64,000 nucleotides of DNA. It comes from Escherichia coli. GTDB taxonomy: Bacteria; Pseudomonadota; Gammaproteobacteria; Enterobacterales; Enterobacteriaceae. Shown here piece after piece: positions 1,108 through 5,141 of this stretch (position 1 is the stretch's first letter; each line of letters opens with the position of its first letter). Where the stretch lies: the NCBI RefSeq assembly GCF_003334255.1, contig NZ_QOWU01000004.1; one strand, written 5' to 3'. The notes below the pieces were generated by a model, which searched no databases, had not been told where the DNA came from, and saw only the letters and a list, made by a program, of their open reading frames with translations. A program made the position numbers and the translations under genes.

Positions 1108-2127
<1,020 letters not shown>

Positions 2128-3354
2128 TTATCCTTTTACGCACACCACCTGACGCAGGGTATAGATAACTTCCACCAGATCGCTTTGTGCCGCCATCACC
2201 GCATCAATATCTTTATACGCCATCGGGATTTCGTCGATCACTTCGGCATCTTTACGGCATTCCACATGCGCGGTGGCACGAATTTGATCTTCCACGCTGA
2301 ACAGTTTTTTCGCTTTAGTTCGGCTCATTACCCGCCCGGCACCGTGGCTGCACGAACAGAACGACTCTTCATTTCCCAGCCCACGGACGATAAAGCTTTT
2401 TGCTCCCATCGAACCGGGAATAATTCCATATTGACCAGCACGCGCAGACACCGCGCCTTTACGCGTCACGTAGATCTCTTCACCAAAGTGCTGTTCTTTT
2501 TGCACATAGTTGTGGTGACAGTTGATCTCTTCCATCGCCAGCGTTTGTGGCTGTCTGACCGTTTTCTGCGTAATGCTCTGCAATGCCGTTACCACGTTTT
2601 CCATCATCGCATCGCGGTTAAGGCTGGCAAAAAGCTGCGCCCAGGCCACGGCTTTCAGGTAATCATCAAAGTATTCCGTACCTTCCATAAAGTACGCCAG
2701 ATCACGCGACGGCAACGTCTCAAGCGTTTCCTGCATCTCTTTTTGTGCCAGATCGATAAAGTAAGTCCCGATGGCGTTACCAATTCCGCGTGAACCGGAG
2801 TGCAGCATAATCCACACCTGGTCCGACTCATCAAGGCAGATTTCAATAAAGTGGTTACCGGTTCCCAGCGTTCCCAGGTGTTTATAGTTATTGGTATTCA
2901 GGAAACGGGGATATTTTTGCGTTAACCACTGATAACCGGCTTCAAGCTCAGCCCATTTAGCATCGACGTTAACAGGTGGATTTTCCCAGGCACCTTTATC
3001 ACGTTTACAACGGCCAGTGGTACGCCCGTGCGGCACGGCCGTTTCAATCGCCTGACGCAGCTCTGCCAGGTTTTCAGGCAGGTCTTCCGCCGTTAACGCG
3101 GTACGCAGCGCGTTCATTCCACAGCCAATATCCACGCCCACCGCCGCCGGAATAATCGCCCCTTTGGTCGGGATCACGCTACCAATGGTGGAACCTTTAC
3201 CCAGGTGTACATCAGGCATTACCGCAATATGTTTGAAAATAAACGGCATCTTCGCCGTATTAATAAGTTGCTGACGCGCATCGGCCTCTACCGGCACGCC
3301 TTTGGTCCACATTTTTACCGGGGCATTTTCAGTGGTCAGTAATTCGTAATTCAT
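2128..3354 (-). CDS. rtcB: RNA-splicing ligase RtcB
   Basis: 408-aa ORF; translation recognised as RtcB; sigma54 promoter immediately upstream. Confidence 0.95.
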   Translation of the reverse strand: MNYELLTTENAPVKMWTKGVPVEADARQQLINTAKMPFIFKHIAVMPDVHLGKGSTIGSVIPTKGAIIPAAVGVDIGCGMNALRTALTAEDLPENLAELRQAIETAVPHGRTTGRCKRDKGAWENPPVNVDAKWAELEAGYQWLTQKYPRFLNTNNYKHLGTLGTGNHFIEICLDESDQVWIMLHSGSRGIGNAIGTYFIDLAQKEMQETLETLPSRDLAYFMEGTEYFDDYLKAVAWAQLFASLNRDAMMENVVTALQSITQKTVRQPQTLAMEEINCHHNYVQKEQHFGEEIYVTRKGAVSARAGQYGIIPGSMGAKSFIVRGLGNEESFCSCSHGAGRVMSRTKAKKLFSVEDQIRATAHVECRKDAEVIDEIPMAYKDIDAVMAAQSDLVEVIYTLRQVVCVKG

Positions 3355-3391
3355 TTTGTTTTTCTCTTTTCGTTGTTTGCTGTCCTGATAA

Positions 3392-3408
3392 TTGCAACCG
3401 TCGTGCCA
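3392..3408 (-). promoter_or_regulatory. sigma54 (-24/-12) promoter of rtcBA
   Basis: Minus strand reads TGGCAC-GACGG-TTGCA, a perfect GG-N10-GC sigma54 element about 40 bp upstream of the rtcB start; divergent rtcR encodes the cognate enhancer-binding protein. Confidence 0.85.
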
Positions 3409-3542
3409 GAAAATTAAATAAGCAGCTTAATTTTTTAATTCATTGTTTTAAAAAAGATTATATCTTTACGTCCGTAACCGGAGATTTCCCGCAAAGCCAA
3501 TTTACCGATAATGAAATATCGTCTTTTATAAGGATATCTAAG

Positions 3543-5141
3543 ATGCGTAAAACAGTGGCTTTTGGCTTTGTCGGTACCGTACTGGATTATGCCGGGCGCG
3601 GCAGTCAGCGCTGGTCAAAATGGCGTCCGACACTCTGTTTATGCCAGCAAGAATCGTTGGTCATCGATCGACTGGAATTGTTGCACGACGCCCGCTCGCG
3701 CTCGCTATTTGAAACGCTTAAACGCGATATCGCCAGCGTTTCGCCAGAAACAGAAGTGGTGAGCGTTGAGATTGAACTGCATAACCCGTGGGATTTCGAA
3801 GAGGTCTACGCCTGCCTGCATGATTTCGCCCGTGGTTACGAGTTTCAGCCAGAAAAAGAAGACTATTTAATTCACATCACCACCGGTACCCACGTCGCGC
3901 AGATTTGCTGGTTTCTGCTGGCAGAAGCGCGTTACCTGCCCGCCCGGCTGATACAATCTTCACCTCCGCGCAAAAAAGAACAGCCGCGCGGCCCAGGTGA
4001 AGTAACGATTATCGATCTCGATTTAAGCCGTTATAACGCCATCGCCAGCCGCTTTGCCGAGGAACGCCAGCAAACGCTTGATTTTCTTAAGTCCGGCATT
4101 GCCACGCGTAACCCCCACTTCAACCGCATGATTGAGCAGATCGAAAAAGTGGCGATCAAATCCCGCGCGCCGATTCTGCTTAACGGTCCAACCGGCGCGG
4201 GCAAGTCATTTCTGGCGCGACGCATCTTCGAGTTAAAACAGGCGCGGCATCAGTTTAGCGGCGCGTTTGTGGAAGTGAACTGCGCCACCCTGCGCGGCGA
4301 TACCGCCATGTCGACGCTGTTTGGTCATGTAAAAGGCGCGTTTACCGGGGCGCGGGAATCTCGTGAAGGTTTATTACGCAGCGCCAACGGCGGAATGTTG
4401 TTTCTTGATGAGATTGGCGAACTGGGCGCAGACGAACAGGCAATGCTGCTGAAAGCCATTGAAGAGAAAACCTTTTACCCGTTTGGCAGCGATCGCCAGG
4501 TGAGCAGTGATTTTCAGCTTATCGCCGGAACGGTGCGCGATTTGCGCCAGCTGGTTGCCGAAGGCAAATTTCGCGAAGATCTGTACGCGCGGATCAATCT
4601 CTGGACCTTCACCCTGCCGGGTCTACGCCAGCGCCAGGAAGATATTGAACCGAACCTGGATTATGAAGTGGAGCGCCACGCCTCACTCACTGGCGACAGC
4701 GTGCGTTTTAACACCGAAGCGCGGCGCGCCTGGTTGGCTTTTGCGACCTCTCCCCAGGCAACATGGCGCGGTAACTTTCGCGAACTTTCTGCCAGCGTCA
4801 CGCGGATGGCCACCTTTGCCACTAGCGGACGCATCACTCTGGACGTGGTTGAAGATGAGATAAACCGTCTGCGCTATAACTGGCAGGAGAGCCGCCCCTC
4901 CGCGCTTACGGCGTTGCTGGGCGCAGAGGCAGAAAACATCGATCTCTTCGACCGTATGCAACTGGAACACGTTATCGCTATCTGCCGCCAGGCAAAGTCG
5001 CTTTCCGCAGCCGGACGCCAGCTTTTTGACGTTTCGCGCCAGGGCAAAGCCAGCGTCAATGACGCGGATCGGCTACGCAAATACCTGGCGCGTTTTGGTC
5101 TGACGTGGGAAGCCGTGCAGGATCAGCACAGCTCCAGTTGA
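3543..5141 (+). CDS. rtcR: sigma54-dependent transcriptional activator RtcR
   Basis: 532-aa ORF with AAA+ sigma54-interaction motifs ([22 protein letters not shown]). Confidence 0.95.

Follow-up and report, generated by a model that had tools for sequence, protein, structure and literature searches.

Where in the 188 bp between rtcR and the divergent rtcBA operon does RtcR bind, and how might it act from there on the sigma54 promoter of the operon? The Rtc system is studied for ribosome-targeting antibiotic tolerance and for damaged-tRNA sensing, and a defined enhancer would permit clean promoter mutants, searches for more RtcR targets, and tests of RtcR self-limitation. A 2016 review gives the RtcR enhancer as 'NK', not known (PMC4987338), and the authors of SigmoID describe RtcR as a regulator 'with unknown binding sites' (Nikolaichik and Damienikan 2016, PMC4888284). 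Our own targeted literature searches for the sequence of an RtcR site returned mentions of a 'UAS' without a sequence, the entry 'NK', and one profile in image form only.

We addressed this question in a 64-kb stretch of Escherichia coli DNA, referred to here as the window, and in related loci of beta- and gamma-proteobacteria. Our main reading, to which we assign a probability of roughly 0.8, is that these 188 bp form a sigma54 control region of the standard enhancer-dependent kind, which would operate according to the full model given below.

The rtc genes and the known sigma54 promoter

The gene order along the window is malT' - rtcA - rtcB - intergenic region - rtcR - glpR. The rtcB-rtcR intergenic region occupies 3355-3542 (188 bp), and the stretch from the promoter to rtcR occupies 3409-3542 (134 bp). 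The features referred to in the text are the following, in window coordinates.

1108..2127, minus strand: rtcA, RNA 3'-terminal phosphate cyclase, second gene of the operon (RefSeq rtcA)
2128..3354, minus strand: rtcB, RNA ligase, first gene of the operon (ORF of 408 aa; RefSeq 'RNA-splicing ligase RtcB')
3355..3382, minus strand: rtcB leader, 28 nt, with the predicted start at C3382, 12 nt downstream of C3394
3393..3408, minus strand: sigma54 promoter core TGGCACGACGGTTGCA, with GG 3407/3406 at -25/-24 and GC 3395/3394 at -13/-12
~3422-3430 (approximate), no strand: insertion of ~9 bp found only in E. coli and E. albertii; the remaining six enterics of the alignment have a gap here
3436..3448, minus strand: IHF-like site AAACAATGAATTA, matching WATCAANNNNTTR at 12 of 13 positions, center near -60
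3449..3505, no strand: non-conserved spacer, presumed looped DNA, variable among enterics, with the E. coli polymorphisms clustered here
3506..3521, no strand: candidate RtcR site A, perfect palindrome CGATA-ATGAAA-TATCG, center near -131
3526..3541, no strand: candidate RtcR site B, TTATA-AGGATA-TCTAA, a degenerate TTATC-N6-GATAA at array positions 19-34
3543..5141, plus strand: rtcR, sigma54-dependent activator, divergent from rtcBA

The gene names and divergent layout given in an initial annotation of the window hold up well. RtcR matches the NCBIfam equivalog model NF038308 (RNA_repair_RtcR) with 852 bits against a cutoff of 650, RtcA matches NF003247 with 780 bits against a cutoff of 333, and the region is annotated rtcB|rtcR in 4,857 of the 5,426 complete E. 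coli genomes in RefSeq. RtcB matches RtcB-family models, yet below the cutoffs of the listed NCBIfam models; its orthologues carry PF01139. RtcR, encoded next to the promoter, has the AAA+ domain with a GAFTGA loop that characterizes sigma54 activators, placed between a CARF-like N-terminal domain and a C-terminal DNA-binding region, and its homologues carry the Pfam domains PF06956, PF00158, and PF25601. Among 16 RtcR sequences of 70 to 97% identity, GAFTGA (G265-A270) and many residues in 488-520 are invariant. At its 3' end, rtcR (plus strand) converges on glpR (minus strand) with an overlap of 19 bp (window 5123-5141), and the corresponding overlap in related enteric loci ranges from 4 to 38 bp.

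Several RefSeq E. coli genomes match the 388 bases around the promoter with 100% identity, and the control region has zero matches in 569 of the 5,426 complete genomes of this species. In locus L095 (E. coli AMSCJX03), an IS1 at locus positions 1772-2995 takes the place of the 5' part of rtcB and of nearly all the intergenic region, sigma54 promoter included, so that rtcR alone is left intact. Together, these observations mean that a sizeable minority of strains have lost the operon or carry it in disabled form.

For comparison between species, a profile search with an RtcR alignment yielded at least 80 loci from beta- and gamma-proteobacteria. Escherichia and Salmonella were absent among the matches listed, and close relatives were added by exact-protein look-up: seven proteins led to nine further loci, in E. 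albertii, Salmonella, Enterobacter, Phytobacter, Intestinirhabdus, and an additional enteric contig.

The promoter core reads TGGCAC-N5-TTGCA on the minus strand, with GG and GC doublets at the canonical -24/-12 spacing, one helical turn apart, in agreement with the sigma54 consensus. Motif and strand are those of the initial annotation; its end coordinate, 3392, took in one extra A, and the true span is 3408-3393. This is the sole exact match to the motif on either strand of the 64 kb (0.05 expected), and at least one exact match was present in 4 of 100 shuffles. The initial annotation had also proposed a scan with a sigma54 position-weight matrix, for which we took 37 other ChIP-seq sites of E. 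coli as the training set (training-site scores 9.0 to 19.0 bits). The rtcBA promoter scored 17.2 bits and ranked second in the window, surpassed only by the known rpoH promoter at 17.3 bits. That promoter, CTGGCACAGTTGTTGCT at 45334-45350 on the minus strand, lies 41 nt upstream of the rpoH ORF (44439-45293, minus strand) and corresponds to peak OS36 of Bonocora 2015, where it is flagged as confirmed (PMC4591121). The third-ranking match, TTGGCAGGCTACTTGCT at 27674-27690 on the plus strand (15.8 bits), falls within an ORF (27139-28317, plus strand) encoding a 392-aa protein with an Hcp/TssD domain. This sequence is absent from the text and tables of Bonocora 2015, and the match may be due to chance.

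The core is invariant among E. coli strains and enterics in our alignments, and a divergent -24/-12 element precedes rtcR by 119-199 nt in 77 of the 79 scannable related loci among the matches listed. Genschik, Drabikowski and Filipowicz (1998, J Biol Chem 273:25516) reportedly mapped the start and named the -12/-24 elements. ChIP-seq places sigma54 at the same sequence: peak OS35 upstream of rtcB, with motif CTGGCACGACGGTTGCA and occupancy 17-fold above threshold, belongs to a promoter flagged as experimentally confirmed in EcoCyc (rtcBp), which bears out the sigma54 promoter of the initial annotation (Bonocora 2015, PMC4591121). Expression of rtcBA depends on both sigma54 and RtcR (PMC9650030; PMC5175333, with Genschik et al. 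1998 cited). The initial annotation had called the promoter perfect, which is true of its consensus match and not of its strength, given that the native promoter is 'very weak in vitro' despite that match (Kotta-Loizou 2022, PMC9650030). The rtcBA sigma54 promoter is already known, a textbook case, and nothing new comes from the promoter itself.

The short rtcB leader anticipated for this promoter measures 28 nt, given a start at C3382, and the published predicted start lies 28 bp from rtcB (Bonocora 2015, PMC4591121). In vitro, ApC at -1/+1 served as the primer on the native promoter, with ATP for extension (Kotta-Loizou 2022, PMC9650030); priming of this kind is compatible with A3383-C3382-A3381. 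Published work argues against a start away from ~3382 and against rpoN-independent induction of rtcBA. We also considered explanations at the RNA level and rejected them: the leader is A-rich and unfolded (0 kcal/mol), Rfam families gave zero matches in 3200-3700, and the only ORFs overlapping the intergenic region are three of 21-31 aa. Comparison of window positions 3355-3382 with the homologous parts of loci L084, L086, L087, and L088 shows that the promoter and 5' leader, with the operon-strand core AACGGAAATGG (AACGAAAAGAG in E. coli), are kept among enterics with either rtcB or rsr as the first gene.

A conserved array beside rtcR

Alignment of eight syntenic enterics revealed only three conserved intergenic blocks: the -24/-12 element plus leader; the AT-rich TTAATnnATTGATTTT; and aCGATAATgAAATATCGTCTTTTATAAGGAnATCTAAG, immediately before the rtcR ATG. 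Over the wider sample, 81 of 88 loci among the matches listed and the added enterics have, right next to the start of rtcR, a 35-bp array of the form KATA-N6-KATCG-N3-TTTATC-N6-GATAA, which in E. coli occupies 3507-3541. The array carries 33 bits over 43 aligned columns, distributed over four short blocks with centers ~9-11 bp apart and uninformative positions between them. Conservation ends sharply at the array edges, with no information content upstream. The array was first chosen with a pattern derived by eye; we therefore ran a leave-relatives-out scan as a control, in which the matrix for each locus was built from sites <70% identical to its own site and the entire locus was scanned on both strands. 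The array was the top match of the entire locus in 80 of 81 loci (among the matches listed and the added enterics). With a matrix of this kind, the 64-kb window gave 23.6 bits at 3507-3541, and the runner-up scored 9.9 bits.

In E. coli, this element contains two candidate RtcR sites, with TCTT between them and a single G between site B and the rtcR ATG. The half-sites of site A are invariant in eight enteric sequences and in six Escherichia sequences. Array positions 19-34, which correspond to site B, form the strongest block in other lineages; the right half in enterics is TCTAA. The rtcR Shine-Dalgarno sequence, AAGGA at 3530-3534, overlaps site B, which stops 1 nt short of the ATG. In enterics site B is degenerate and has the Shine-Dalgarno sequence in its spacer, and translation may therefore account for part of its conservation. 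Divergent E. coli strains and E. albertii have zero polymorphism at 3505-3542 and in the promoter hexamers, while the spacer varies. By our own estimate, ~0.1 palindromes with two 5-bp arms and a 6-nt spacer are expected in 134 bp; the palindrome is not significant in E. coli alone, so the case for an enhancer rests on the comparison between species. A generic repeat finder applied to 3340-3560 reported AT-rich chance pairs only and missed the 5-bp half-sites.

The arrangement is the one expected of an enhancer, namely repeated or palindromic sites ~80-150 bp upstream that are conserved with the activator. Published reporter data bear on the same DNA: the 175 nt upstream of the rtcB ATG suffice for RtcR-dependent expression (Engl et al. 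2016, PMC5175333). This fragment corresponds to 3355-3529 and contains site A whole, with site B cut after TTAT. A plasmid carrying the 175 nt reduces chromosomal rtcBA mRNA, from which its authors infer titration of RtcR (Kotta-Loizou 2022, PMC9650030). Both the reporter activity of 3355-3529 and the drop in rtcBA mRNA fit site A as the main site in E. coli. The initial annotation had placed the RtcR sites in the ~130 bp upstream of the promoter, and the conserved, phased element at 3506-3541, together with the sufficiency of 175 nt (PMC5175333), supports that placement. The literature has thus shown sigma54 occupancy, dependence on RtcR and sigma54, and sufficiency of 3355-3529; from the sequence comparisons we infer that RtcR would be the protein bound at 3506-3541.

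Between the array and the promoter, in an AT-rich context, lies the IHF-like site, a close match to the IHF consensus. Its Salmonella homologue is the perfect AATCAATATATTA, and many other loci have a perfect match at the homologous place. Counting matches with at most one mismatch, in operon orientation and at a fixed offset from TGGCAC, we found the site in 68 of 86 loci among the matches listed and the added enterics. The offset is 40-43 nt in most lineages (41-43 nt in most non-enterics) and 30-31 nt in Salmonella-like enterics; the 9-bp insertion shifts the site from 30-31 to 40 nt upstream of TGGCAC. In locus L094 (E. coli O157:H7 Z1815), the T-run of the site has a 1-nt deletion (CATTG-TTTT, window 3446-3449), which brings the enhancer 1 bp closer to the promoter (98 bp, as against 99 bp). 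'The rtc IHF binding site' is mentioned without a sequence by Kotta-Loizou 2022 (PMC9650030), and we infer that IHF would bind at 3436-3448. Since Fis is needed for rtc activation in Salmonella, IHF may not be the sole architectural protein.

Distances between the array and TGGCAC group at 78, 88, 97-103 (~99), and 109-114 (~111) bp, with E. coli at 99 bp. A Rayleigh-type periodicity test on these distances, not corrected for relatedness among the genomes, gave a broad optimum at ~11-12 bp, which is suggestive only of helical phasing of the enhancer-promoter distance. What our analysis shows directly is the sequence anatomy of the region, its conservation, and its spacing. We regard it as likely that the array is the RtcR enhancer in beta- and gamma-proteobacteria, that it would activate the RNA-repair operon through an IHF-bent loop of quantized length, and that it would also repress rtcR.

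Alternative readings of the conserved block

The alternative that survives best is that the 35-bp block consists of the expression signals of rtcR itself, namely a sigma70 -10 element, a 5' UTR, and a ribosome-binding site, and is no enhancer at all. Several features of the block are compatible with this: in most loci among the matches listed and the added enterics, 1-12 nt separate its end from the rtcR start codon; its left block, kATAnT, resembles a -10 hexamer and could double as one (GATAAT at 3507-3512 in E. coli); its right block (GGATAA/GAGATAA, with AAGGA in enterics) is purine-rich at Shine-Dalgarno distance; and the literature places a sigma70-type rtcR promoter facing away from the operon promoter. 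However, -35-like conservation is absent upstream of the array, and our scan of 3300-3600 for sigma70 promoters and terminators found zero. Four fixed blocks at a pitch of ~10.5 bp, containing the two palindromes TTATC-N6-GATAA and CGATA-N6-TATCG, are the signature of dimeric protein binding, as opposed to a promoter or a ribosome-binding site, and the sequence is kept across beta- and gamma-proteobacteria of very different base composition, at a quantized distance from the sigma54 promoter. Moreover, the two roles are not exclusive, given that autoregulation of rtcR would itself predict their overlap. We therefore consider it unlikely that the block serves rtcR expression only.

It is more improbable still that another regulator, such as a repressor of rtcR or a nucleoid protein, binds the block and that RtcR binds elsewhere or acts independently of a site. 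Such a reading gains from the fact that the link between RtcR and the block is drawn from sequence comparison, from the Fis requirement in Salmonella, and from the ability of some sigma54 activators, if overproduced, to act from solution, an example being the promiscuous DctD250 at the rtc promoter of Salmonella (PMC3844500). Yet the block accompanies rtcR in many genera (81 of 88 loci among the matches listed and the added enterics), and nowhere else in each 6.5-kb locus or in the 64-kb window is there a comparable score. The C-terminal region of RtcR is equally conserved, the block keeps to discrete distance classes of 78-114 bp from the -24 element, which is known enhancer geometry, and the cloned 175-nt fragment lowers chromosomal rtcBA mRNA, an effect that its authors ascribe to titration of RtcR (PMC9650030).

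Finally, two palindromes in the spacer, TTACG-TC-CGTAA (3467-3478) and CTTTACG-N19-CGCAAAG (3465-3497), are present 60-90 bp upstream of the -24 element, but we rejected them as RtcR sites, a role that is very improbable for sequences that are lost already in E. albertii (TTACG to CCAGT), are absent from Salmonella, Enterobacter, Phytobacter, and Intestinirhabdus, and lie in the most polymorphic intergenic stretch within E. coli.

Proposed mechanism and related systems

According to the enhancer-dependent model that we favor, sigma54-RNA polymerase would form a closed complex on TGGCAC-N5-TTGCA at 3408-3393, and transcription would begin at C3382, placing a 28-nt unstructured leader ahead of rtcB-rtcA. 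RtcR dimers would occupy four half-sites of the GATA/TATC type, ~10-11 bp apart, at 3506-3541; in E. coli, site A would be the strong site and site B a degenerate one, in an array 99 bp upstream of the -24 element. A bend at the IHF site (3436-3448) would loop the poorly conserved spacer, so that RtcR, activated by its signal and oligomerized, could contact sigma54 through its GAFTGA loop and use ATP to open the promoter. Array-bound RtcR would also dampen transcription of rtcR. Because the array spans the DNA of the rtcR ribosome-binding site and abuts the ATG, RtcR probably limits its own transcription, and autoregulation of rtcR is therefore a probable part of the system.

What is added here is one modest prediction, a likely position and consensus for the RtcR sites. 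As a by-product of the analysis, the predicted sites have a concrete location and consensus, for an enhancer that reviews call unknown.

In 27 of 88 loci (among the matches listed and the added enterics), the operon strand carries one or two tRNA-like genes whose distance from the divergent sigma54 promoter is fixed: a gene that stands alone begins ~185-190 nt after TGGCAC, and two in tandem begin at ~134 and 206 nt. Examples, all on the minus strand, are found in loci L013 (2064-2207), L036 (2090-2162), L018 (2080-2154), and L025 (2063-2207); the loci belong to Burkholderia, Dechloromonas/Azonexus, Thiobacillus, and the Pseudomonas nitroreducens group. Many of these genes have abnormal anticodon loops, their 'anticodons' vary, and Rfam classes them as tRNA, not YrlA. 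In L013, an SPFH/Band 7 protein comes next. RtcR is reported to be a sensor of damaged tRNA halves, which makes a tRNA-like leader in its operon noteworthy.

The closest known system is the E. coli rtcBA promoter itself as described in the literature (Genschik 1998; EcoCyc rtcBp; OS35), with the identical locus, the sequence CTGGCACGACGGTTGCA, the divergent rtcR, the 28-bp distance, and dependence on RtcR and sigma54. As to the promoter there is no difference, and the published descriptions give the RtcR enhancer and the IHF site without a sequence. The SigmoID RtcR profile for Pectobacterium (PMC4888284) is likewise a computational proposal for RtcR binding. It may represent the same motif as the 35-bp array.

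The rsr-yrlBA-rtcBA promoter of Salmonella Typhimurium (rsrp), with a divergent rtcR, has the orthologous -24/-12 element TGGCACGCTGGTTGCAAT, which is bound by sigma54 and drives rpoN-dependent reporter activity (PMC3844500). Also orthologous are the leader, the IHF-like site, and, beside rtcR, the block made up of CGATA-N6-T(A/C)TCG and TTTTAnAAGG. Unlike E. coli, Salmonella has rsr first and then Y RNAs, and its IHF-like site lies 30 nt from TGGCAC compared with 40 nt in E. coli. Induction of rtc in Salmonella requires Fis and Gifsy-1 prophage genes. Across enterics with either first gene, the control module appears to have kept its position through the gain or loss of rsr and the Y RNAs behind it.

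The pspF-pspABCDE system of E. coli, which uses PspF, sigma54, and IHF, resembles the rtc locus in having a divergent activator gene, a sigma54 promoter, and an IHF site between enhancer and promoter. At pspF, the enhancer sites overlap the expression signals of the activator gene, which results in negative autoregulation. PspF, which is under the control of PspA, has no regulatory domain, whereas RtcR has a CARF-like sensor domain. The recognition sequences of the two activators are unrelated, and autoregulation, established for pspF, is a prediction for rtcR.
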